A stretch of DNA of 64,000 bases from Naegleria gruberi (lineage: Eukaryota): assembly GCA_000004985.1 (NCBI GenBank), contig GG738881.1; one strand, given 5' to 3'. Shown here in pieces: positions 17,435 to 64,000 of the stretch. The translations under genes and the position numbers were made by a program. The notes under the pieces were generated by a model. The model did no database searches. It was not told the DNA's origin and saw only the letters and a list, made by a program, of their open reading frames with translations. The stretch's first letter is position 1; each line of letters starts with the position of its first letter.

Positions 17435-19177
17435 ATGACAAGCAAACACCTGGCTAAATTCTTTGCCAATAAATATCAAGTTAGTGATCAACAAGAAAAA
17501 TCAACAAGAACTAGAAATCATCTCGGACCTGAATCAGGGTTGATATTTCAACCAGAGTTTAATGATGTAATCTATGAAATTTATCCATCATCTTTTAATT
17601 GGTTCGGATCAAAGAGACCAAATGTTTATCTATCAAAGAAGAGACAACTTGTTGAATTTAATGATGTCTTTTTATTCAATTTTATTGTTAAGAGTTTGAG
17701 GAAATATGAATTTGCTAATCATACTAATCAGTCATCTGAGGATTTACAATTTATTGAAGGAGTTAAATTATTAATTGATTCTAATCCAGTTAAACCATCA
17801 CAGAAAATTATCAAACTAATAGAATTAATATTTTATCAATGTAATAGTCAAATAGCTTTATTGAAGAGTACACTTCCGAGAATTACTGATGCCGAGTTGA
17901 AATGGCAAATATTTACAGCCAAATCAAGCTTGATTGTCACATCATGTTTGACAATTATTAATATTATTGCAAAATGGAGAATGGGTACAATCAATTCAGA
18001 AGATGAAATCAAAATTCAAGAGTTTAGATTCCTTGCTGAAAATACCATTAGAGAAATTAATACTATTTCCAATTCAGAAACTGTATCACAATCATTTAAA
18101 TTAGTTCAAAATAAGAAACAACCAGCTGTCATTCAAAAAATTGTTAGATTTTTAAAGATTATCATGATAGAAAGAGCTCATCAATATTCATCATTCAATC
18201 AAGCCCTTTTCTTCATTTCAATTTTTGGTAGTAGAATATTCCCAGCATTGTTTAAAAAGCTCTCTGAGAAATTTATTGAAAAACCAGCAACCAATATCAA
18301 TTCAACAGGTAAGAAAAAGCCATTGAAGAAAACTCCAATCACTATGAAAGATGCTCAATTTATTGGATTTGTTGTAGGAACAATGTTTGGAGCTGGAGGA
18401 TGTGCCTCTGTTGTTACCACCTGTTTAGATTACTTGAGAGACAAATCTTTGGGAAGAAGATTAGAAGATACACCACTCAGCTCAATATTTGTTTCTAAAA
18501 GTATTTGGATGACATTTGGTGCATTGATTGGTATTGCAATCAATATTGCAGCTAGACAGTCTATTCACATGGCTGTTGGTAAAATTATTCAATCATATTT
18601 GAATAATCCTCAATTTATTAGAAAGATTGCTGGTAAGCAAAATGAATTGATGGCTAAAATAATGGCAAGAACCTTCTCTAACATGCTCTCTAAGGAGACT
18701 TCCAAAATGTTGTTACCATCCTTTGATAAGAAACCAATTACAACACAAAAGAAGGATTCAGACAAATCGTCAGGATTTGCAACCATGACCAACGACCCTT
18801 TCATCAAATCTCTTTTAAAGGATCAATTATCATTTGTCAATAAGAAGAACAAAATTGCTGGATATTTAGTTGATAATATTCTATTGGGAGAAAGCAATAT
18901 TTTAGAAAAACCTCAACAAGTTTTCAGAAAATTTTCCAATTTGAAATCCAAATATTACAATGCTCTGAATAGAATTATTCCAGCAGAAAATAGCGTATGG
19001 CACTATTGGAGTACAATGACTGCTCTCTTCCTCTCGAATAGATTCTCCAAACAAGTGGCTGACCAATCTTTTGAACAACAAGAGTCTCAACTCTATGAGC
19101 TTAATGCTGAGTTAAGGGAAATTCTCAGTGCTTTCACGCAAAGATTTTCAAACATGGAGAGAACATCAAAGTTGTAA
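17435..19177 (+). CDS. Hypothetical protein (580 aa) with predicted hydrophobic segments
   Basis: Long uninterrupted ORF with consistent codon usage. Includes a GTMFGAGGCASVVTTCL hydrophobic segment. No family recognised. Confidence 0.5.
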   Translation: MTSKHLAKFFANKYQVSDQQEKSTRTRNHLGPESGLIFQPEFNDVIYEIYPSSFNWFGSKRPNVYLSKKRQLVEFNDVFLFNFIVKSLRKYEFANHTNQSSEDLQFIEGVKLLIDSNPVKPSQKIIKLIELIFYQCNSQIALLKSTLPRITDAELKWQIFTAKSSLIVTSCLTIINIIAKWRMGTINSEDEIKIQEFRFLAENTIREINTISNSETVSQSFKLVQNKKQPAVIQKIVRFLKIIMIERAHQYSSFNQALFFISIFGSRIFPALFKKLSEKFIEKPATNINSTGKKKPLKKTPITMKDAQFIGFVVGTMFGAGGCASVVTTCLDYLRDKSLGRRLEDTPLSSIFVSKSIWMTFGALIGIAINIAARQSIHMAVGKIIQSYLNNPQFIRKIAGKQNELMAKIMARTFSNMLSKETSKMLLPSFDKKPITTQKKDSDKSSGFATMTNDPFIKSLLKDQLSFVNKKNKIAGYLVDNILLGESNILEKPQQVFRKFSNLKSKYYNALNRIIPAENSVWHYWSTMTALFLSNRFSKQVADQSFEQQESQLYELNAELREILSAFTQRFSNMERTSKL

Positions 19178-23614: not shown

Positions 23615-26366
23615 ATGAAACGATTGGTTTTTAGAGCAGTAAAGGGAGGAAGAGATTCAAGTCTCTTGAAGCCTTGTATCAAGAAGGAACATCAACAATC
23701 AATTATCATGATGAATGGGTCGAATAGTAAAAGAACATTTTTTGATTTTTCGGAGGATGATTTGAAAAAGATGAACAAAGCAACCAACAAACCAGAAGTG
23801 AAGGGTGATGAATTGAAGAAACCAGACGAACATCCAACTTCTTTAAATTCATCTCATTTAGCTCACTCGGAAGGAAGCGAATCAAAGATGGTTGTTCCTA
23901 AAAAGAGATCAATGGCCGTCAACCCTCATGAACCTCTCTATGGTGAATGCCTCAATTTTAAAGCTCAAAATAATTTAATTGATTTTAGTGGAGAAAGACG
24001 AGAGGATGTTAACAAAGTTATGAATATTCTTTCAAATGTTGAAAGTCACAATAATATTATTTTAGGTTAGTTTAATTTTGGATCAACATATATTTTTACA
24101 CATTCAAATAGTTGGTGAAAATGGTGTTGGAAGAAGATCAATTATTGAATCATTGGCCTATAAGATTACTAAAAATCCAGAAAATGTTCCAGAACGTTTG
24201 AGGAACACAAAAATAATTGAGCTCTCTGTTGATAACTTGTATGGATGCAATGTTACAAATAATATTTGCACAACCTTCTTCAATGCATTGAAATCACTCA
24301 AGGTTTATGATGCCTTTAATTATGATTTGCCTCCAAATCCAAAATTAATGTCGATTGAGGAAAAGAAAGCGCATCTATACGGAAATAATCCGCCTCCAAC
24401 AGCTCATGATGAGGATGTCGAAAGATTGTTCAACGAAATGGTTGAATCTGTACAATTATATAGAGAAAATAGAGAAAAAACTAATCAACCTAAGATTTTA
24501 TTTATTCATCAATTTTATAATATGGTAGATGATTATTCATACTCTTTCTATGATAGTGTATCATCAGTTTTGCAACCTTTATTGGAAAAGAAGAGGCTTA
24601 AATTAGTAACATGTATGACACCATCTGAGTATGCCAAATTCACAAAGAATCCACTTGCTTCTCATTTTGAAGTTATCAAAGTTGGTGAGCCAAACTTTGC
24701 CACTACATTGGATATTGTAACAAAGAAGAAGGAATATTTGGAAGCATCTCATGGAGTTTTTATTGATAATGATATCGTTGAAGAGGCTCTCTTACTCTCT
24801 AATAGATATATCCCACTCAAGGCAAATCCAATGAAATGTATTTCAGTTCTAGATGAGTTGGCATCAATTGTTGAAAAGAGAGGTTGTTCAATTCCTATTA
24901 ATGTATTGGAGTTAGAGGATAAGATTAAGAAGGTGTCAATTGATATTGACAAAAAGAGTGATGATGATATTGATACTTCTTCATTAATGAAAAAATTGGA
25001 AAAGCTTAAGGAATCATACGCAACAAAATATTCTGCTTGGAAGGCTGAGTACCAAGCTCTTCAGTCTTACAGAGAAAATAGAGTTAGATTAATAGGGTTG
25101 AAGAAGGAACTTGGTGATTGTATTGCATCTATTACCAGTCCTGACTGCGAGTCTGCCAAGAGGGCATCAAAAATAATTGAAGATGATATTCCAGAAGTGA
25201 AGGCAAGTTTGAAAATCTTTGAAAAACAGTCTGCCAAAAACAAATATGTCAACAATAGAGCTACTTTGGATGACTTGTCTGTAGTGATTTCTAGAATGTC
25301 TGGAATTCCTCAAAAGGATTTGTATTTCACAACTCAAAAGAATCATTCTCTTAATAATATGGAGTCTATCTTGGAAGAACAGGTAATTGGACAAAAACAA
25401 GCAATTTCTTCCATTTCAAAAACAATACGAGTTGCCAAGCTAGGTCTCAGAGATGCTAACAAACCTCAAGCTTCACTCCTATTTTGTGGATTTTCAGGGG
25501 TTGGTAAAACTGAGCTTGCTAAACAAATAGCTAAAGTTGTTTATGGAAATGAAAATTCTGTATCTGTAATTGACATGACAAAGTATAATACTGAGTTCTC
25601 TGTATCCGGATTGATAGGCACATCGGCTGGCTATGTAGGTTACGATGATGGTGGCGAGCTAACCAACACAATCAAGAAGAATCCATTCCAAGTAATTATT
25701 TTTGATGAAATTGAAAAGGCACACAGTAGAGTTTGGAATATTTTATTACCAGTTTTTGAGGAAGGTGTTTGTCAGAATAATTATGGTGAAAGTGTTTCTC
25801 TGAAAGATACAATTATCATTCTTACATCTAATGTGGGTACAAAACGATTGTTCCAACACAAGGAAGAGGACAAGGATTTGACACAACAAGAAATCTTCCA
25901 TGAAGAAATCAAGGAAACTTTTGCTCCTGAATTCCTCAATAGATTAGATGATATCGTCATTTTCAATGAGCTTTCCATGCATGATTTGGATAAGATTTTG
26001 TCAATTCAATTGAGAAAGTTAGAAGAAAGACTTTCAAAGAAGAGAGAAATCAAGATTGAACTCTCTACTGAAGCTAGACAATTCTTAATTTTTAACTCAT
26101 TTGATATTCAGTTGGGTGCTCGTCCAATTAAGAGAAATATTCAAAACTACTTATCGGCACCAATTTCAGACCTCTTCTATCAAGGAAAATTGGACAAGCA
26201 TTGTACTTTGAAGGTAGATGTTGATGAGAAGAAATTGAAAGTGGAAGTGATAGTAGATGAGAAGAAGGAAAGTCAAGAAAAGAGGAAACGAAACAATGAT
26301 TATGATGACTTATTAGAACTCGATCACAAACTTAAGAATGCTATCAAATCATCAAATGTAGAATAA
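23615..26366 (+). CDS. ClpB/Hsp104/Hsp78-type AAA+ disaggregase homologue with degenerate NBD1; join(23615..24065,24112..26366)
   Basis: 46-nt intron (GTTAGT..AG) joins …NNIILG to VGENGVGRRS…. NBD1 Walker A is GENGVGRRS (canonical GEPGVGKT). NBD1 Walker B is ILFIHQFY (canonical ILFIDELH). A coiled-coil middle domain is present. NBD2 is intact: GFSGVGKTELAK, VIIFDEIEKAH, sensor and C-terminal small domain. The N-terminus is basic, possibly an organellar presequence, and there is no ClpN domain. Confidence 0.7.
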
Positions 26367-46417: not shown

Positions 46418-49400
46418 TTATATTATAGATTTAGCACTATTGATAAGTGTACTACCAACATTTCCAATAACTGAACTAACCATTGAGAATGGATTCAAAG
46501 TTTCATTTTGATTTCTTCTAATCTTTGATCTCAATAAATTGTAAAGAGAATCAAACTCAAGTTTGCTTTGAATAATTGGTAATTCAAATGTTAATCCATG
46601 ACTAGTTAAAATTGAAAGTGTTCCTAAAATTGGAGATTCTTGATTGTCTACATTTTGTAATTTTTTCACAGATTTGATTGAGGTAAATGGAATGACAGTA
46701 TCTTTCTTTTGAGGTTTCATCCATTCGAAACAAAAATATTGTTCTCCAATAAAGGCAATACCAGTTGGTTCTTGTGAATTCGTGGAAAGAAGGAAATAGG
46801 TAATTAACTTTTCTCTTGAACAAATCTTATCAATTTGGAATCTTTGGAAGAAGTATGTTTGAGCTTCTTCTTGTGTCAACATATTTGAAATATTATCATT
46901 CTTTGGTTCTTGACGTTTGAGAGAGGCCTTTGAGTGTTTGTATTGATCAAGGAATGTTTCACAATTTTCCTTTTCAATATCACAAACTTCAATCTCTCCG
47001 TAATCTTTAATGGAGATTTTCAAAGTGTTGGAAGTTTGCACAATGTTCTCAATTCTATTCCATGTGAATTTTTCATAGAAGGTTGCTTGAACAGCATAGA
47101 AACAGAAACTACTTGTAAATACAAATATGGAAGATTTGAAAGAGTTTTCATCTTGTCTAACATTGGATGAGAAGAATGTAATGCATTGTTCCTCTAATGG
47201 AATATCAAACTTTCTCTTGATGATATCTTCTCTATTTTCCTCATCTTCTGGACCTTTACTAGCTAATGAATCAGAAGATTCAGATGCAGCTGATATGAAT
47301 CCCTTTGTTTGTTCAGATGATGGTTTTGATCCAAATTTAAACAAGTTCATCAATTTGCTTGGTGTATTGGTGCTTTGTGTTGGGGTGGCCTTGTTCTTTG
47401 ATATTTCCACATTATTTCCAAGATTTTTGAATTGAGTTTGTAAACATTCAATGAAAGCACTTCTTGAAGATTCATCAGAAAAGAAAAACTTGACTCTATT
47501 CTTTGGATTGTTACTTGAGGAGCCAACATAGATAGAAGTGTTGGCAGATATTTTGAAATGAATAGAAACTCCCTTTCTCATAAAACCTTCTGTTAAATGA
47601 ATCTTTTCAACATCGCGTAATGAAATTCTGTGATAAACATTTGAGAATCTAAATTCAAATAATAAAAATTCACCACCAATGTGAATAGTTCCTGGAGCAA
47701 TCTTTGAAGAATCATAACAGGTCGACGTTAAATAGACAGTTAATTTGTCTGTTCCTTCAACAATGGAATATCTAGCATAAATATTGAATTTGATAATTAA
47801 TCTTTGAACCTTTGCAGTTTCCTTATATTTAGAATAAATTTTTCTAGCTTTTTCATCATTCTTCTTTCTAGTAAAAAGTATGGAAACTATGTGATAGGCC
47901 TTAACAGGATATTTCTCTGCAAATTTAGTATTTGAAGCAAGTTTTTGTAAGTGAGCTTCCAGCTTTTCTGTTTGGGTATTGTAAAGTTTACAAAGCTTGA
48001 CTAAAAGTTTACTCTTAGTTCTGGCAAAATCATGTGAAAGAGCAGTTTCTTCCTCTTCGTCATCTGTCTTCTCAGCAGATCCACAAAAGTAAATAATAAA
48101 TAACTCTAAAATAGATTCCAATACATATGCCTTTTTTTAAATATTAGTTTTTAACTAAATTGTGAGATGATACTTACTTGTTGGGCAGTCAAAAAAACTC
48201 TATCTTGAGGTTTCCTAGTAAAATTAGCAGGATCCAACAGGAAAGTACTCAATTCCTCTACTACTATCAAGAATAATCTTTCCAAAATCTTCTTGAATAA
48301 ATCCTTATAACAATTTTGACTCAAAATTTCCAAAGCAGGTGTTAAAATTGGGATGAAGAGTGATGAATCTAGAAGTGCATCAGATTTGCTCTGGAAGAGA
48401 TTTTTAACTTCAACTCTTGTAGAATTCTTCATCTTGGCAAGATCTTTTTTAGCATTTTGTAAAACGTAATTAATAGCATTTCTTATTGGAGCTTGGAAAA
48501 TGTTAGCAGTTGCTAATGTCAAATCGAACAAAACTTCATTGAATTGTTTTGTGAATTTTTGAATTGACATGTTAGACTTTTTGGAATATTCATTTTCAAT
48601 CTGTTTAGATTTTTGATTCGATTTCTTTTCAACTTCATCAAAATCAATATCATCTCTATCATAATCTTCAAATCCAGTTTCTTCCGTAGTTTCTTCATAT
48701 TCAGCCCATGAAGAAGTATCAAATATATTCTTTACAACAGATTGAAGCTCTTGTCTACATGCTTCAATGTCATTCAATCTAATCACAAAATGTTTGGTGA
48801 TTGCAACAGGTAAAATATGAGTATCCTTCAAATCTTTAAATACAGACTTTGGAACAATCATATTAAAGAGAAGGTTACTTTGTTTTTGTTTTGAATCAAC
48901 ATTTTGGTTGGAGAGACTGTTGACATCCTCCAAACATTGATCTGAGACTTTCTTTGCATATTCTGTTGCGGTAATTCTAATAACAAGCTCTGCAAATCTT
49001 ACATACAAATTGGAATCAGAAAATTCCAATTTTTGTAACAATTCAAATATTTGATTTACAGAGGTAAAATAATCTACCACTGAGGTACTATGCATACAAC
49101 TATCATTGATAGGTTCAAAAGTATCAATTGCAATACTTTGTTTGATCCATTTGGATAACATTTCACTTAATTCTGTCATATATCTTTCAGAATAACCCTC
49201 ACTAATAGATTTAGCATCAATAAATTTGAAATTAGAAAGTTCCTTAGATGAAAAATCGTGTCTAATTTCCTCATGGAGAGGTTTCAACTTGTTACAAAGA
49301 GTGAGCATATAAAATCCATTAATGTTATCATTCTTCTTAGCGTATTGGATATAGTTGTCCAAATTAGAGTAATAAAACGTCAGTGCCTCCATTTCAAAAT

Positions 49401-56306: not shown

Positions 56307-57212
56307 ATGCTCACACATCAAACTTCTCTCTTCCGAAGTGTTGTCAGAAGAAGCTTTTGTTCGTCATCATCACTGCTGTTATTAACAAGGAGAAATTTTA
56401 CCACAACAATAATTTTAAATAATAATCAGGAAAAAACAAGAGTTAGACCGTTGACAGAGAAGGACAAACTTAAACAGAGACAAATTAATTTCGAGAAGAG
56501 GCTGAAGGAATTGGATGACTCTGCTATCGATCTAGGTAATAATGAAACTTTGAATCAACCACCAAAAAGTTTTGAACAGAGATTGAAGGAATTAGAAAGA
56601 AATGCAACTACAACAAAATCCAAAGTTCCGAAATGGCTTAAAGAACATCATACAAGACATCCAACACCATATTCGATATATGTGAAACAGTGTTGGAAAA
56701 ATGCAATTGAACATTATGAAAACAACAAGGAACATTTTGATAATTTATTTCCAAATTTCGAGAAACGAAAGAATTTGATGATTTCAAAAATATTAGCACT
56801 TCAGTGGAAAACATTGAAAGAAGAGGATAAAAAAATATATTACGATACTCATGAGGAGATTAAAAAAGCAAATCCTTTACCAATCGTGGATGATAAACCA
56901 GAGTGGAAGAAAATTAAAAGACCAAGAACAGCTTTCCTACATTTCAAGATGGATATTTTCCAGAGTGTGAAATCTCAATTTGCAAGCTACAACATCCAAC
57001 AATTGAATTTTATTATTTCTGAAATGTATAAAAAATTACCAGAGGATAAGTTGGAATATTACAGAGGACTTTGCTCTAAAGAAAGAAGCCAGTATTATAA
57101 ACTAAAAGAAGAAACGATAAATAAGCATAAGAAGCCAACAGAGGAAATCAAACAGGAGGATTATGAAAATGAGGAAGAGGATGATGAATACGAAAGTGAT
57201 GAATTTTATTAA
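56307..57212 (+). CDS. HMG-box protein with N-terminal mitochondrial-presequence-like region (TFAM/Abf2-like, tentative)
   Basis: 301 aa. Basic, Ser-rich N-terminus. HMG-box-like segments (…KRPRTAFLHFKMDIFQSVKSQF…). Acidic C-terminal tail. Confidence 0.5.
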   Translation: MLTHQTSLFRSVVRRSFCSSSSLLLLTRRNFTTTIILNNNQEKTRVRPLTEKDKLKQRQINFEKRLKELDDSAIDLGNNETLNQPPKSFEQRLKELERNATTTKSKVPKWLKEHHTRHPTPYSIYVKQCWKNAIEHYENNKEHFDNLFPNFEKRKNLMISKILALQWKTLKEEDKKIYYDTHEEIKKANPLPIVDDKPEWKKIKRPRTAFLHFKMDIFQSVKSQFASYNIQQLNFIISEMYKKLPEDKLEYYRGLCSKERSQYYKLKEETINKHKKPTEEIKQEDYENEEEDDEYESDEFY

Positions 57213-57253: not shown

Positions 57254-60200
57254 TTATTGGAGTGAATAGGTAATTAAATACTTTGGATAAGCTTGTGAAT
57301 TTTTGTAAACAATGAAAATATCACTTCCACCAGTATTTCCCTTCACACTGTCATATCTTACAGCAGAGTTTGGCTTGAGAGGAGGAATTCTAATATTACT
57401 ATTTGAACTACAACTGTGAAAATCACCTGTTAACACTTCAGCAAGGAAAAATTTTCTGTAATTAGTACCTGGAACGGGAAAAGCATAGCCATTAGAATAA
57501 CTTGCATTGACAGCAAAATAACATCCAATTCCCCACATTCCAGTATTTGAAAATCTCATGTCAAATCCTTCATGACCATCATAGATAATGCTTGGATCTG
57601 TACTTCTTGTTCCATGGAACAATAATTGAGGATCGGTTGAATATTGTCCATTTGAATCAATCTTAATCTTGTTGATTCTATCTTGTTCAGTTTTATAACT
57701 TTGATAAACCAATTGATTTTGAACTTTTTCAATATTTTGAATCACTGCATTTGGAATGGTCAATTTAATTCTATCATTGATCATTTTCCATTCATTACTT
57801 GATTGAGATAAATTGATGAGAATTACATTTGAAGTTTGAAGCTGCCAATCTTGAGGATAACTGAATTTACTCAACAATTCAGGTTTATCAGCAATGGTCA
57901 AGAGAGCATATTCCTTAAATTTGTCAACTGTATACTTGAATCCAGTAATTGTAAATGGTGATACGTTCATATCAATCTTTAACATTCCATTATCAAATTT
58001 TGCTTTCATTGATGCATGTTCTGATAGAATGTGATCAATTACAAACTTGTTACATGATTTTGTTAAGGACTCGGTAATGTAGCTTTCTTTGATATTATTT
58101 CTAAAATTAAGCTCGAATGATTGAACATCTGAAGCTTCTCCATAAAGTCTGAATGAATAAACAGATTCAGTTACGCTTGCATATTTAGTTTTGCTAACTG
58201 ATTTAACAATTTGAATGGGAACAGTATCAGTAATTAGTATTCTGTTATGAGCAGATCCACTCACAAATGTGTAATGATTGTCATCTTGATCATAAACATA
58301 CAAGATGGAATTCTTATTCAAATCTGATGCAACATCAATGTTACACTTCACAATTTTTTGAATTGGTATCCTCTTAACTCTTCTTACATATTGAGTTTGT
58401 GAGTTGACTTGAACGTGCTCTTCTTTAAGGTAATCGAATTTCACAAAATATTTGATATCTTCAGAGGTATACTTTTCATTAGTCATCAGTACATTACATT
58501 CAGTATTTCTTTCATTATAGCTCCTTTCAATTTCTTTCATTTGATTTTCTCTATAAGGATTCCATGTCTTGTTATCATCAGCCAACCATAGCCATAAAGC
58601 AGTCAAATGTTCAGTATCCATTGTTGGAACATAAATAATCTTTCTCTTAAATTTAGAAGAATTTTCAATTTGTTCCATCTTGTCAAAGTCAATTTGGTAC
58701 TTTTTACCTTGTTCCGCATTCAAAATGAAAGTTGACTTGGGATCTTTTTCATATTCTTGACATAATTTACGATTATCATTCACTGTGAATGGCAAATACA
58801 TCTTTTTGATATCATCAAAATATTTGAAACATCCAACATATTCATCTTGTTCAATTTCAATAAATGAGGAATCATTCTTTGTATCTAATGTATAGACTAG
58901 ATCTGTTTGTAATAAGTTGATAGATTTTGAGAATGATTCAGTAACTGTATTAATATCACCAATCAGTATAATTTCCCTCAAACATGATAATTGTGGTGCA
59001 TATTTGTAAATTGTTCTGACAATGATATCAGTTGATTGATCAAGTGGGAATCCAAATATTCCAGATGAAAGTGCAGGAATAATGATTGAACAATATCCAT
59101 CCTTTTCTGCTTGAGTCAAAATATTCACAACTGTTTGTTCAAGTAAACTACATGAGTTAAGATGATTATTTGAATCATACATTGGAGGAATGGCATTATA
59201 AATCTTTGAGAGGTAACTGAGATTTCCAGCAGTTGTTGGAACTACATCACCTGGTTTGAGTTTAAGAGAGGTGGTAATATTTTTACATTCTTGATCAAAT
59301 TGTTTTCCACATTTCTCTAAACATTGAGCAGCAATTCCTCCACCATGTGCCAATTGGTCATTTGCACTGTTAACAAGTACTTGAGCTTTCCATTTCTTAT
59401 CAAACATGTCACCTTGACAAATGTAAATAAATGAATTCTCAATTTTGTGAACTTCCTTGATTCCACTGTCAAGTTTCTTTTCCAAAACAACCTTACCCTT
59501 TGTCTCAATATTCTTTTCTGAAAAGAATTTGAATTCATCATGTTGCATTCTAATAAAGTCAACCAATACTTTCTTTCTCACTTCCATCATTACTCTGTGA
59601 TAGGAATTGTCAATGAATTTGTACATATCTTGAGATGGTGCAACTAATGTAATTGATAGTCCTTGTTCTAAAATCTTTACATTATTTTGTTGAACTGACT
59701 TGAGAAGTGGTAATGCAAGATTCTTTTCAATAATATTATTAAAAGTCAATTTGATTCTCTTTTCTTTTGATTGCAAAAGTTCAGATTCAATTCTTGATTT
59801 CACTTCCTTCACATCTTCATCTCTTAATCCCTTGATATAAAAAGTCTTCTTATTTGAATCAAAATCAACATTAATTGATGAAATATCCTTCTTGAACTTG
59901 TCAATCTTGGTTTTAACAGTTACCTTTTTCAGTAAATGTTCATTGACTTGTTTTGCTTGAACAATATCAGAGCTTCCTTTCAACAATTCACTCAATTCAT
60001 TTCTAATCTTCATTTCATTTTCTTGATTTTCAACAATAGCAAATAAAATAATAATGTTCTTTGACTTTTCAGGTGCCAAAACTGTTGAGGCAGTTTGAAT
60101 TTCTGTTAATTGCTCAAAATATTTCTCACCTTCCTTTTTAACATCTTCTTTCAAAGAGGCATGGATAAATTGTAATTCCAATTTAACACTTTTAATTTTC

Positions 60201-61604
60201 TTAAGCTCTGCTTGCAATAATTGTCTTGCCTTTTTAGGTACATTTAATACGATCATCTTACTGGCATCCTTTTCGTCTCTCTTGCATTTGAATTCAATTT
60301 GGCCACTCTTTAATAAGTGAGAGCTGAACTTTCTCAAGAACTTATATTGTGTAGTTTCTATAGTTACTGGATTCTTTGTATCACCCTTCTTAATCTTGTT
60401 AAAAACTTTGTATTCACTTTCACTCTTCAAAGTACATTCAATTTGAAAGTTTTCATTTTGTTTGGTATATTTAAATTGAATATTTTTGTTAAACAATTCC
60501 TTTTTTGTAGCATCAAAATCATCCTTTGGAATTGAAAACTTAATTTTGAACAAATCAATAATTAATTGATTGTTATATATATCACTCAATGAAGTTAAGT
60601 GCCAAGTAGTGAAATTTTTCTTGGATTCTTCAATATATAAATATACACCTGGTGGCAATTTCTTTTGAACTTGGTCTTTCTTTTCATTGCTATTTTCATA
60701 ATAAAATTCGACGAATCTTGCAGGTTGCAATAACTTGATAACAAGATTTTGTAAATATTGTTGAACATTTTGAATATTTGGTTGTGTTGGTTGAATTTTG
60801 AAAGTAATTGTCTTATCTTTGATCTCAAATGAATTGTTTGTACCACCAGACATTTGTGATAACTCTCTTCTCAAGTCATCACTGAAGAATTTATCCAAGG
60901 CAACTGCTTTGATTCCAGTTGGAATTTCAATAGAATAAACTCCAGCAACAGTTTTCTTTGGCTTATTGTCAATGGTAATTTCAAGTGGTTCATTATAATA
61001 CTTGATGGAAGAACATTTTTCTTTGATTATCTTGGCAATACCATATGTTGAAATATTGACCCAAATAAGTTGTTTCTTCTTATTGGTAGTGAGTACAGGT
61101 TTAACTTTTTCTTCATTAAGAATGTTTCCAACTAATTCTGGAACAGTCAACTTGATATTGAAGAGTACATCATTAAAATCAACACCAAGAGGGAATACAA
61201 TACGAACAGCTTCAGTTACAACGGCACTAGATGTTGAATCAAACGAAGTGGAAGAACTAGGTGATACTTCTCTATCACTAAAGTTATCAATTGGTGTTTG
61301 AGGAGTTGAACTAATTCTTTGATTCATTCTCAAAGGATCAATTTGAATGTTAGTCATTTGTTGATTCATCATTTGACTATTATTCATAGTGTTATAATAG
61401 GTATTGTTGTTTGGATTACCATAATTATTATTGGTATTCATAGGTTGGTTATAATTCATAGAAATTTGATTAGTATTGCCATAATTATGCATACTACTAC
61501 CAGTACTATTATAATTCAAAAGCAATTGTTGATTACCACCACCCATTGTATTACTAATAGGATGAACCATGGTTTGATCATAAGGATTGTTCATACCATA
61601 ACCA

Positions 61605-61635
<31 letters not shown>

Positions 61636-61954
61636 AATTAGCATTAAAATCATATTGATTCATATTGGTATGATTATTAAGTAACAATCCATTTGAACCA
61701 TATTGATTGTTACTTAATGAATTGATAGGTTGTTGTTGTTGTTGGCCATTCATTGCTGAAGAATTAGTGTACATGTTGCTTTGAATGGGATCATTAAACA
61801 TTTGGTTATTATTACCACCATAACCTTGATAGAATTGACCACCATTATTGTACATATTTTGTCGGTGATTTTGCTCTTGGTTTGGTTGTTGGTTATAACC
61901 TTGTGTTTGATTTTGTGGAGTTAGCATATTTCTGGTTTGTTGAATAAAACCCAT
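57254..61954 (-). CDS. Macro-domain / WWE / PARP catalytic domain protein (PARP14-like mono-ADP-ribosyltransferase architecture) with a roughly 215-aa Q/N-rich prion-like N-terminus
   Basis: 1566-aa single ORF. Macro domain (…KAQVLVNSANDQLAHGGGIAAQCLEKCGKQF…). WWE-like segment (…HLTALWLWLADDNKTWNPYRENQMKEIERSY…). C-terminal PARP fold: LLFHGTRSTDPSIIYDGHEGFDMRF…GMWGIGCYFAVNASYS…SDIFIVYKNSQAYPKYLITY, with an H-Y-I triad (I in place of PARP1 Glu988). N-terminus is N/Q/G/Y-rich with an (ATT)n-encoded poly-Asn. Confidence 0.8.
61608..61632 (-). repeat. (ATT)n microsatellite encoding poly-Asn inside the PARP N-terminal prion-like domain
   Basis: attattattattattattattatta on the plus strand = (AAT)n on the coding strand = NNNNNNNNN. 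Confidence 0.8.
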
Positions 61955-62308: not shown

Positions 62309-64000
62309 TTAGAAAAGGCCGTGATCTCTCAAAGTCTTTTGTAAAATAATATCCTTAATATCATCCATAACCATCAAAGAAGCATCTTCACGTATCAAAT
62401 CAACAAAATGAGTGTATAAACACCGTTGTCTAATTGTTGGATCAACATTAATAAATTTCTCAGCAACAAAACTAGTGTAGAGGAATACATGATCACCAGA
62501 ATAATCAAAGTCTGGAAAACACATTCGAAGAGGAACAGATTTGATTCTTTTACGGAATATATCTAATTTTGTAAATACTAAAATGATTGGTGTATCTTTG
62601 TAAAAGCTTAAGATTTCTTTGAACATTGAAAGTGAATTATGCATATGGGAAACCAATATTTGGTTTTGAGTTGGAGGAACAAAATTTAGAGGGTCAACAA
62701 TTGGTGGGCTTTGAGGATTTTTAGTTGGACTAAAGTCAAGTAAGCTTAAAGAATATTCACAATATTCACTTAAAGAAACCATGAAAACAATTGCAGAAAC
62801 TGAATCTCTATCAAAATGAGAAGTCATCCACTTTCTTCTTTCATTTCTTTGTCCAGTAATATCTACAAACTCACATGGGAACGGAAAATTTAACTGACAT
62901 GTTTCAATAGATGTAGAAGGAAAATATGTAGTTAAAATATCTCTTGATGTTGGTGTATATCTTAGTGATGCTATTCTGTCAATATTATCAAAAAAGTATC
63001 TTGCATTGTAAAGTATTGAGTTATTTAAAGATAACTTGTCAAATGTGTGTTTTACGTATTTATCCTTCCATAAACTCTTAAATAATTCAACTGCTTCTGG
63101 ATTTAAGAAATTTTGAGTAATCTTATTAGATTCCTCTGATTGAGTATCATATTGTGATGGTTGTTTGTGGAATTGTTTTGAATCATTTTTAAAATTACTT
63201 AATCTTTGGTGAAGAACGTTTAAACTTTCATCCAATGATGATGAAACTCTTAAAGGAGATTTGTTCTTTGGAGTTATAGGTATGGATTGGCTTGTATTAT
63301 TACTAGCAGCACTATCACTATTGCATTCATTTTGTGTATTTAAAGTTTGATTAAACCTCCAAAGTTGAAGTAATTGAGCTCTTCTCCTTAAATTTTCTCT
63401 AAATTCTGTTTCCGTGACATTCTTAATTAAATATTTTGCATTATTCAATACAAATTTCAATATTTTACATTTAAATAATTCTACAACTTGTTCATTCGAA
63501 TAATCACCCTCTAATAATTTGATTTTTCTAATGAGGGTACTTTTTCCTGATTTACCAGATCCAAGAGTTAAAATTCTAACTTTTTTAGGTTTTTTAGAAT
63601 CCAACTCGATTTGCCTTTGGATTCTACGATCATTTTCATTGTTATCAACATCAGATGAAACTCTTTGAATGTTTGATGCTGATCGATCTAAACTATTGAA
63701 AGATGCTCTTCTACGAGGTGTTGTGGTTTTCTTTGAAGGTAAAGCATCATCACTTGGTGAATTACTTGTAGGAGATGGTGAACCAAAAACCATTTGATCA
63801 TCATTTTCTATTGCTAATTCAATCATGGCATGAGAAGATGATGATCCATTAACGTCTTCATCCTGAATTAGACTTGATGTAAAATCATTGATTGAACTCA
63901 AGTCAGCAGTTGATTGTCTAAGAATATTAGAATGTTCTCTATGATGATGCTCCCTATTCTGAGTTGATGATGATGATGGTATTTCATTATTCTCCAAAGA
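62309..64000 (-). CDS. Heterotrimeric G-protein alpha subunit-like protein, divergent; partial (N-terminus lies beyond the window end)
   Basis: G1 KVRILTLGSGKSGKST. Switch I DILTTYFPSTSIET (Tyr where the catalytic Arg sits). G3 DITGQRNERRKW. G4 FTKLD. C-terminal …YTHFVDLIRED…DHGLF lacks the TCAT (G5) box. More than 145 aa of S/N-rich sequence precede the G1 box, and there is an S/N-rich insertion in the helical domain. The ORF-track 'M' at 63997 is a TTG. Confidence 0.7.
   Translation of the reverse strand, partial: SLENNEIPSSSSTQNREHHHREHSNILRQSTADLSSINDFTSSLIQDEDVNGSSSSHAMIELAIENDDQMVFGSPSPTSNSPSDDALPSKKTTTPRRRASFNSLDRSASNIQRVSSDVDNNENDRRIQRQIELDSKKPKKVRILTLGSGKSGKSTLIRKIKLLEGDYSNEQVVELFKCKILKFVLNNAKYLIKNVTETEFRENLRRRAQLLQLWRFNQTLNTQNECNSDSAASNNTSQSIPITPKNKSPLRVSSSLDESLNVLHQRLSNFKNDSKQFHKQPSQYDTQSEESNKITQNFLNPEAVELFKSLWKDKYVKHTFDKLSLNNSILYNARYFFDNIDRIASLRYTPTSRDILTTYFPSTSIETCQLNFPFPCEFVDITGQRNERRKWMTSHFDRDSVSAIVFMVSLSEYCEYSLSLLDFSPTKNPQSPPIVDPLNFVPPTQNQILVSHMHNSLSMFKEILSFYKDTPIILVFTKLDIFRKRIKSVPLRMCFPDFDYSGDHVFLYTSFVAEKFINVDPTIRQRCLYTHFVDLIREDASLMVMDDIKDIILQKTLRDHGLF

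Follow-up and report, generated by a model that had tools for sequence, protein, structure and literature searches.

A predicted PARP14-like multidomain mono-ADP-ribosyltransferase of Naegleria gruberi with a Q/N-rich N-terminal tail

The minus strand of a 64,000-nucleotide stretch of contig GG738881.1 (Naegleria gruberi assembly GCA_000004985.1; hereafter the window) carries a complete coding sequence for a PARP14-like protein. An earlier note on this DNA described a single 1566-aa open reading frame (ORF) here and gave it a Macro-WWE-PARP architecture. Both statements hold: the ORF list and the codons give one uninterrupted frame at the same position, from ATG to TAA, and scans for PF01661, PF02825 and PF00644 all score above their curated cut-offs. 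The sequence makes it probable that the gene encodes a clade-3, PARP14-like multidomain mono-ADP-ribosyltransferase (ART), for which we propose a combined writer, eraser and RNA-binding scheme. The layout, from the N- to the C-terminus, is probably a Q/N-rich tail, an RRM-like domain, a likely array of KH modules, a macrodomain of the macrodomain 1 (MD1) type, two WWE domains, a probable KH-like module and an ART domain with an H-Y-I triad.

The ORF protein is 100% identical to the N. gruberi protein XP_002674999.1 (EFC42255.1; UniProt D2VM45), which is named "poly ADP-ribose polymerase family, member 14-like protein" in the databases. XP_002674999.1 has 1557 aa and is contained in the ORF letter for letter, its first residue being M10. 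The gene is therefore single-exon, and the Q/N-rich region is already in the public model. A look-up by identical protein found no database record of the exact 1566-aa form, because the public model begins at M10. The gene is thus already catalogued under a fitting name, the protein is uncharacterised, and no established rule is broken. The upstream in-frame ATG (61927-61954, minus strand, aa 1-10, MGFIQQTRN-M...) indicates that the annotated start is perhaps nine codons short. We favour M1 over M10 as the true start because the N-terminus of the Naegleria fowleri orthologue, MGYIG..., aligns with the MGFIQ... of N. gruberi.

The Pfam PARP catalytic family PF00644 matches aa 1387-1564 of the whole protein (E=1.3e-17, 64.4 bits against a cut-off of 26.7). 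Among solved structures searched with HMMER, the PARP15 catalytic domain comes first (E=1.7e-25 over aa 1364-1564), followed by PARP12, PARP14, PARP10 and the tankyrases; the score order among the human PARPs is PARP15 > PARP12 ~ PARP14 > PARP10, with PARP12 at E 1e-19. A poor AlphaFold2 (AF2) model submitted to Foldseek still retrieves the ARTs of PARP12/15/14 (E 1e-5). The HMMER alignment sets LLFHGT, GCYFAV and DIFIVY against the His, Tyr and Leu triad sites of human PARP15, and the codons were verified for H1447 (57614-57616), Y1479 (57518-57520) and I1546 (57317-57319). The PARP fold with Ile in place of the elongation Glu, as read in the earlier note, is confirmed by this alignment and the codons. 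Its prediction of a mono-ART like PARP14/15 is supported by the H-Y-I triad, with PARP15/12/14 as the best solved ARTs. In the N. fowleri orthologue the third triad residue is Val.

The macro domain proposed earlier is likewise secure, since PF01661 matches aa 861-978 (E=4.6e-24) with 85.1 bits against a cut-off of 22. Among solved structures, aa 844-1013 match macrodomain 1 of human PARP14 best (69.8 bits), whereas macrodomain 2 (MD2) of the same chain reaches 30.7 bits. PARP9 macrodomain 1, Escherichia coli YmdB and MacroD-type enzymes follow. PARP9 proteins were also found via the macrodomain when the C-terminal half was used as the database query (33-38% identity). PARP14 macrodomain 1, PARP9 macrodomain 1, YmdB and the MacroD-type enzymes are ADP-ribosylhydrolases. 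According to Delgado-Rodriguez et al., hydrolase activity is predicted by an Asn/Ser and a Gly on either side of loop 1, together with a hydrophobic residue followed by an aromatic one in loop 2 (PMC10221186). All four of these signature residues are present, as N865, G873, I966 and F967. Loop 1 reads HGGGIA (G871-G873) opposite HYGGLA of PARP14, in which the G832E substitution abolishes activity (PMC10499325), and loop 2 reads SSGIFGFP (I966-F967). Only one Macro stretch appears in Pfam and the segment scans gave no further macro signal, so that readers of the MD2 or macrodomain 3 (MD3) type are absent.

A WWE-like module had also been noted. The WWE assignment stands (PF02825, E=3.2e-16, 59.9 bits against a cut-off of 21.1), although the count does not, as two tandem domains are present rather than one. 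This follows from two PF02825 stretches and from sub-threshold WWE_5/WWE_2 matches at aa 1050-1108 in a scan of the isolated segment; isolating aa 1000-1210 also raises the WWE match to E 2.6e-18 and 66.6 bits, again with two stretches. The second domain covers profile positions 2-67 of 67.

Table 1. Features of the window discussed in the text. Residue numbers refer to the 1566-aa protein.
Feature	Residues (aa)	Position	Strand	Basis
Complete coding sequence, N. gruberi PARP14-like protein; single exon	1566 + TAA	57254..61954	-	ORF list
Q/N/G/Y/M-rich low-complexity, low-charge region	1-215	61310..61954	-	Composition; no Pfam match
(AAT)~12 microsatellite (ATT on plus strand), poly-Asn	109-117	61604..61640	-	Tandem Repeats Finder
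RRM-like domain, tentative	~248-330	60965..61213	-	Low-confidence AF2 model
Array of small alpha/beta modules, ~500 aa, probably of KH type	336-840	59435..60949	-	Low-confidence AF2 model
Macrodomain, PARP14-MD1/PARP9-MD1/MacroD type	844-1013	58916..59425	-	Pfam and solved matches
WWE domain 1, divergent, FKYF replacing WxW	~1038-1110	58625..58843	-	Second Pfam WWE stretch
WWE domain 2, canonical W-x-W...W..Y start	1120-1195	58370..58597	-	Best Pfam WWE stretch
Region X, between WWE2 and ART	1196-1363	57866..58369	-	
Candidate strand-G-helix unit and KH-like module, long helix into ART	~1262-1356	57887-58171	-	
PARP-type ADP-ribosyltransferase catalytic domain	1364-1566	57257..57865	-	Pfam, PARP15 match
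Antisense ORF, Ile-rich	121	61319-61684	+	
Two-HMG-box protein gene	301	56307-57212	+	
G-protein alpha subunit gene		62309-63997	-	Pfam G-alpha E 1.1e-69
ClpB/Hsp104-type AAA+ disaggregase		24078-26366	+	AAA_2, ClpB_D2-small, AAA_lid_9
Long ORF	580	17435-19177	+	
Long ORF	567	46418-48121	-	

A full-length N. fowleri orthologue of 1494 aa (P0008) is present in a Logan assembly and keeps the whole layout at 34% identity overall. By region the identity is 55% in the ART, which is the best-conserved domain, 48% in the WWE pair, 41% in the macrodomain, 32% in the RRM region, 30% in region X and 22-28% in the middle. NCBI models of N. fowleri split this orthologue, and one piece is named "RRM domain-containing protein" in UniProt. 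Two NCBI loci are found, each in two models: P0004/P0006 (FDP41_000608/000609) with 250+1066 aa and P0005/P0007 (FDP41_007328/007329) with 1008+318 aa. The pattern suggests that annotation or assembly has split the gene, or that it was duplicated recently.

About 800 aa of the protein (aa 216-843 and 1196-1363) had not been described in the earlier note. The middle region, aa 216-843, has no Pfam match, and scans of the unassigned segments gave noise at E>0.02. In a scan of 1.84 billion representative proteins it was matched, apart from itself, only by the N. fowleri orthologue and by an environmental fragment of 184 aa at 75% identity, so by sequence the aa 336-840 array appears to be an orphan outside Naegleria. 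Self-BLAST detected no internal repeats, and profile searches against PDB sequences gave no meaningful match for the RRM region or for aa 600-845. An AF2 model of this part of the protein, built from a 3-sequence alignment, has a mean predicted local distance difference test (pLDDT) of 47.5. It contains a confident b-a-b-b-a-b unit (b, strand; a, helix) at aa ~248-330 (pLDDT 70-86) and a part of moderate confidence at aa ~730-795, and the stretch between these two repeats a b-a-a-b-b-a secondary-structure pattern. Structural matches of this weak model include, on the RRM side, IMP3 RRM12 (2.4 A over 77 residues), UPF3, TRMT2A and TIA-1. Matches to type I KH domains comprise SF1, MEX3C KH1 (2.9 A over 83 residues), KSRP KH3 (1.8 A over 64), vigilin, FBP, NOVA-2, PNO1 and IGF2BP3 KH12. 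An N-terminal RRM/KH pattern was found in PARP14 by AlphaFold (Suskiewicz et al., PMC10450202), and on the model aa 216-843 likely follows it.

Region X alone gave no match in Pfam and none in profile searches of PDB sequences. The AF2 model of the C-terminal half, also from a 3-sequence alignment, has a mean pLDDT of 39.5, and we therefore make no claim about the fold of the WWEs or of region X beyond a secondary-structure hint, namely a b-a-a-b-b-a order at aa ~1292-1356 (pLDDT 52-72) with a long helix at its end. About 30 of the relatives share a module in two parts just ahead of the ART, a strand-G-helix unit followed by b-a-a-b-[IL]x[IL]xG-helix. A profile of this module was built from 18 sequences (16 relatives and the two Naegleria sequences), in which the Naegleria segment is placed by position and pattern only. 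Of its 15 PDB matches 13 are type I KH domains, each of them weak (E 0.02-1.5). In hhalign the profile reached 78.7% probability (E 1.7e-5 over 75 columns) with the part of a mollusc PARP14-like protein that Pfam assigns to KH_PARP14_8, and two relatives have sub-threshold Pfam KH matches at the module position. Profiles of 2-3 Naegleria sequences align the expected module ends with the mollusc KH8 segment and with each other, not significantly (hhalign E 0.17-0.18). PARP14 has a split KH with macrodomain(s) inserted, and its last KH, further on, carries a long helix (PMC10450202). Whether the strand-G-helix unit is one half of a KH interrupted by macro and WWE domains, as in PARP9 and PARP14, was asked by joining the halves; hhalign gave E=0.24 in a test of low power, whose positive control reached only E=0.045.

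The likeness to human PARP14 (ARTD8/BAL2) includes the C-terminal mono-ART with a His-Tyr-aliphatic triad, the MD1-type macrodomain and a WWE. It probably extends further, to an N-terminal RRM with modules of KH type and to a candidate KH-like module close to the ART. The differences are also clear. Human PARP14 has three macrodomains, whereas the Naegleria protein has one and lacks the MD2/MD3 readers. The single WWE of PARP14 lies directly before the ART and follows KH8; the two Naegleria WWEs lie 168 aa before the ART and precede the last KH-like candidate. The third triad residue is Ile in Naegleria and Leu in PARP14, the 215-aa Q/N-rich tail is absent from PARP14, and the Naegleria RRM/KH region has no detectable sequence similarity to it. 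Because the three macrodomains, the single ART-abutting WWE and the KH8-then-WWE order are missing, we class the protein on its sequence as a clade-3 macro-PARP that is "PARP14-like" and not as a PARP14 orthologue. Human PARP10 and PARP12 have the identical H-Y-I triad, but neither has a macrodomain. PARP12 resembles the Naegleria protein in having WWE domains before the ART, and its CCCH zinc fingers were not found there by Pfam. PARP10 combines an RRM with KH domains, the last of which precedes its ART (PMC10450202), and its ubiquitin-interacting motifs (UIMs) were likewise not found in the Naegleria protein by Pfam.

The domain identities, the triad, the signature residues, the composition and the conservation in N. 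fowleri are direct observations. Several points weigh against the PARP14-like interpretation. The number and order of domains depart from human PARP14 in the ways just given. Both AF2 models are of low confidence (mean pLDDT 47.5 and 39.5), and the RRM and KH assignments are tentative. Without the ART, the Naegleria pre-ART segment is not significant against the relatives (BLASTP E 4.3; hidden Markov model E >=0.075; hhalign E 0.045). The best pairwise alignment to a solved WWE, that of TRIP12, falls below significance (E=0.033) and is too weak to place the ligand-contact residues. Finally, the macro loop of N. fowleri reads HDAGVA, so that HDAG replaces HGGG, a change that might impair the handling of ADP-ribose in that species; the last Gly and the Ile-Phe pair are retained.

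The first 215 aa, which the earlier note had called an N/Q/G/Y-rich region with a poly-Asn microsatellite, are indeed of this kind. They contain 27.4% N, 14.4% Q, 8.4% G, 8.4% M and 7.4% Y (N+Q 42%), nine charged residues and nine [GSNQ]Y[GSNQ] motifs. Such motifs are reminiscent of known self-associating low-complexity domains. The AAT repeat (Tandem Repeats Finder: period 3, 12.3 copies, 88% matches) encodes an N9 run at aa 109-117, and a Q5 run occupies aa 71-75. Under the published criterion for Q/N-rich regions, at least 30 Q+N in an 80-residue window, the best stretch has 38. Only 1 of the 36 ORFs of at least 150 aa in the 64-kb window reaches this level; the next best has 21, and the Q/N richness is therefore not a mere effect of the AT-rich background (GC ~0.31). 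The possibility that this N-terminus belongs to a separate gene or exon was rejected, since there is one uninterrupted ORF, the NCBI substring model includes the Q/N region and the N. fowleri orthologue has a disordered region in the same place; the tail thus belongs to the same polypeptide, as was claimed. An Ile-rich ORF of 121 aa on the opposite strand is an antisense reading of the AAT/CAA-rich codons and no gene.

The N. fowleri tail is 121 aa long, nearly uncharged and P/Q/S/G-rich (P 13%, Q 13%, S 11%, N 8%), with at most 20 Q+N per 80 residues, below the criterion, and one [GSNQ]Y[GSNQ] motif compared with nine. The two tails are essentially unalignable (24% over 107 aligned positions). 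The conserved feature, as judged from these sequences, is an uncharged disordered N-terminal region, and the extreme Asn richness is lineage-specific. Of the prion-like, aggregation-prone domain proposed earlier, the Q/N composition survives, while its conservation does not, and because the N. fowleri tail is not Q/N-rich the prion-like character appears to be species-specific and compositional only. The N. gruberi tail resembles yeast-type Q/N-rich prion domains (Sup35, Ure2) and FUS-like domains in the Q/N criterion, the low charge and the interspersed Tyr and Gly. It differs from these domains in being prion-like by composition alone, in not keeping its Q/N richness in the sister species and in being partly (AAT)n. 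It is quite possible, although not the explanation we prefer, that the tail is a neutral low-complexity expansion driven by slippage, neither prion-like nor condensate-forming. The (AAT)12 microsatellite, the shorter P/Q/S-rich tail of N. fowleri and the meaningless alignment between the species all agree with this. Neutral expansion would not readily account for a Tyr-, Met- and Gly-containing uncharged disordered region of more than 120 aa at the same site in both species behind an MG[FY]I start, for the single Q/N-rich ORF among the 36, or for the nine motifs that resemble self-associating domains. We prefer the reading that an uncharged disordered tail would promote self-association, with the N. 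gruberi Q/N extreme being a recent and partly microsatellite-driven elaboration. By analogy such a role is plausible, as PARP14-dependent ADP-ribosylation in human is described as enriched in a condensate, the p62 bodies (PMC12084362). The idea of condensate- or stress-granule-associated ADP-ribosylation in Naegleria is speculation.

For the origin of the layout, long queries in word-indexed homology searches gave only 2 and 5 matches, while a short query of region X and the ART (aa 1179-1566) was productive, with 140 proteins. Of their ARTs the nearest, at 40-48% identity, belong to environmental eukaryotes and ciliates (Stylonychia "PARP 14-like", Halteria); sponge and Limulus proteins rank lower, and identity to the mollusc PARP14-like protein is 26%. 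Architectures among the relatives include Macro-WWE-X-ART, WWE-WWE-X-ART, RRM-ART and WWE-ART. The protist PARP14-like proteins (Stylonychia lemnae, Halteria grandinella and the environmental P0024, P0040 and P0015) have the closest ARTs, and some share the layout and the pre-ART module. They differ in being 220-660 aa long, with no RRM/KH array or Q/N tail shown, and many are short-contig fragments. The top-scoring relative, the environmental P0014 (543 aa), is an unusual double-ART protein with two tandem PARP catalytic domains, as seen in two Pfam PARP stretches and two YP..W...HGT...YLITY units. The Dictyostelium pART family, which the earlier note had offered as the comparison set, was a misdirected choice, since the gene belongs to Naegleria; the exact match to the N. 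gruberi protein rules out a Dictyostelium origin.

Citarelli et al. included N. gruberi in their survey, yet listed clade 3 members from animals, Dictyostelium and Tetrahymena alone (PMC2964712). Perina et al. placed the macro-PARP ancestor early in Unikonts and regarded the Paramecium macro-PARP as a second invention (PMC4245714). On sequence grounds the Naegleria gene and its ciliate and environmental relatives argue for a wider, possibly older, distribution of the layout. A serious rival to common origin, if a rather unlikely one, is convergent assembly, in which the common macro, WWE and ART modules were shuffled independently in protists and "PARP14-like" refers to shared domains only. 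The number and order of the domains are unlike those of PARP14, the nearest ARTs come from ciliates and environmental eukaryotes with varied architectures and are closer than the mollusc PARP14-like protein, sequence searches detect no homologue of the middle region outside Naegleria, and macro-PARP fusions have been argued to have arisen more than once (Perina et al., PMC4245714). Yet the type of the macrodomain is specifically that of PARP14 and PARP9 MD1, the KH8-like pre-ART module is common to the protist relatives and the mollusc PARP14-like protein, and the combination of RRM, KH, macro, WWE and ART is unusual enough to make repeated invention less parsimonious.

Every activity and cellular role of the Naegleria protein considered here is one that we infer. 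The ART domain would use NAD+ to put single ADP-ribose units on itself and on targets, a step suggested by the H-Y-I triad as in PARP10 and PARP12. The macrodomain would act mainly as a hydrolase that clears ADP-ribose marks in cis or in trans, as its signature residues imply. Writer and eraser would thus share one polypeptide, as has been demonstrated experimentally for human PARP14 (PMC10470015, PMC10499325). The WWE pair, judging by its family, would sense an ADP-ribose-derived ligand, and the tentatively assigned RRM/KH modules would anchor the enzyme on RNA or on partner proteins.

The earlier note had treated the macrodomain as a reader. We consider it more likely to be a mono-ADP-ribosylhydrolase, an eraser more than a reader, because the matches are of the MD1 or hydrolase type and all four signature residues are in place. 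A domain without hydrolase activity, whose sole role is to bind ADP-ribose and bring the enzyme to proteins that are already modified, is doubtful. Macrodomains generically bind ADP-ribose, a Pfam match by itself cannot separate binding from hydrolysis, PARP14 MD2 aligns too and the Gly-rich loop is altered in N. fowleri; against this, the best matches are all hydrolase-type and score well above MD2, and N865, G873, I966 and F967 are all present. A catalytically dead scaffold that transfers no ADP-ribose and only binds, like PARP9 or PARP13, is very unlikely: activity is predicted from sequence and has been lost repeatedly in clade-3 PARPs (PMC10221186, PMC2964712), but the NAD+-binding triad keeps its His and Tyr, its third residue is the Ile found in PARP10 and PARP12, both of them active (N. 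fowleri has Val), and no domain is better conserved between the two Naegleria orthologues than the ART.

Interferon induces human PARP14 and its relatives, which are antiviral enzymes, and the writer, eraser and RNA-binding logic of the PARP14 family has been worked out only recently. The present gene, taken with the similar ciliate and environmental proteins, extends the layout well outside animals and amoebozoans, and its single-macrodomain version offers a simple system for dissecting the coupling of writer and eraser in cis. Naegleria hosts giant viruses (PMC11043551), and an immune-type role is therefore testable. A bolder reading, which we regard as improbable when taken as a whole, is that the PARP14-type combination of RNA binding, writer and eraser did not originate in unikonts or animals but is ancient among eukaryotes, shared by Discoba and ciliates and perhaps as old as the last eukaryotic common ancestor (LECA), that it serves ADP-ribosylation directed at RNA or viruses in protists and that in N. 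gruberi it gained a prion-like tail as well. If this were true, the tail could link ADP-ribosylation signalling to condensate formation in N. gruberi.

The genes flanking the PARP14-like gene are ordinary eukaryotic genes. Downstream lies a convergent gene for a protein with two HMG-box stretches and an N-terminus resembling an organellar targeting sequence. The two stop codons are 41 bp apart, and the 3' untranslated regions therefore probably overlap. The G-protein alpha subunit gene lies 354 bp upstream of the PARP start; it has a Ser/Asn-rich N-terminal extension of ~120 aa, and its listed TTG start is probably false. Two long ORFs elsewhere in the window have no Pfam family at E<=0.001. 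The window also encodes a ClpB/Hsp104-type disaggregase, worth mention solely in that Hsp104-type proteins propagate Q/N-rich prions in yeast.

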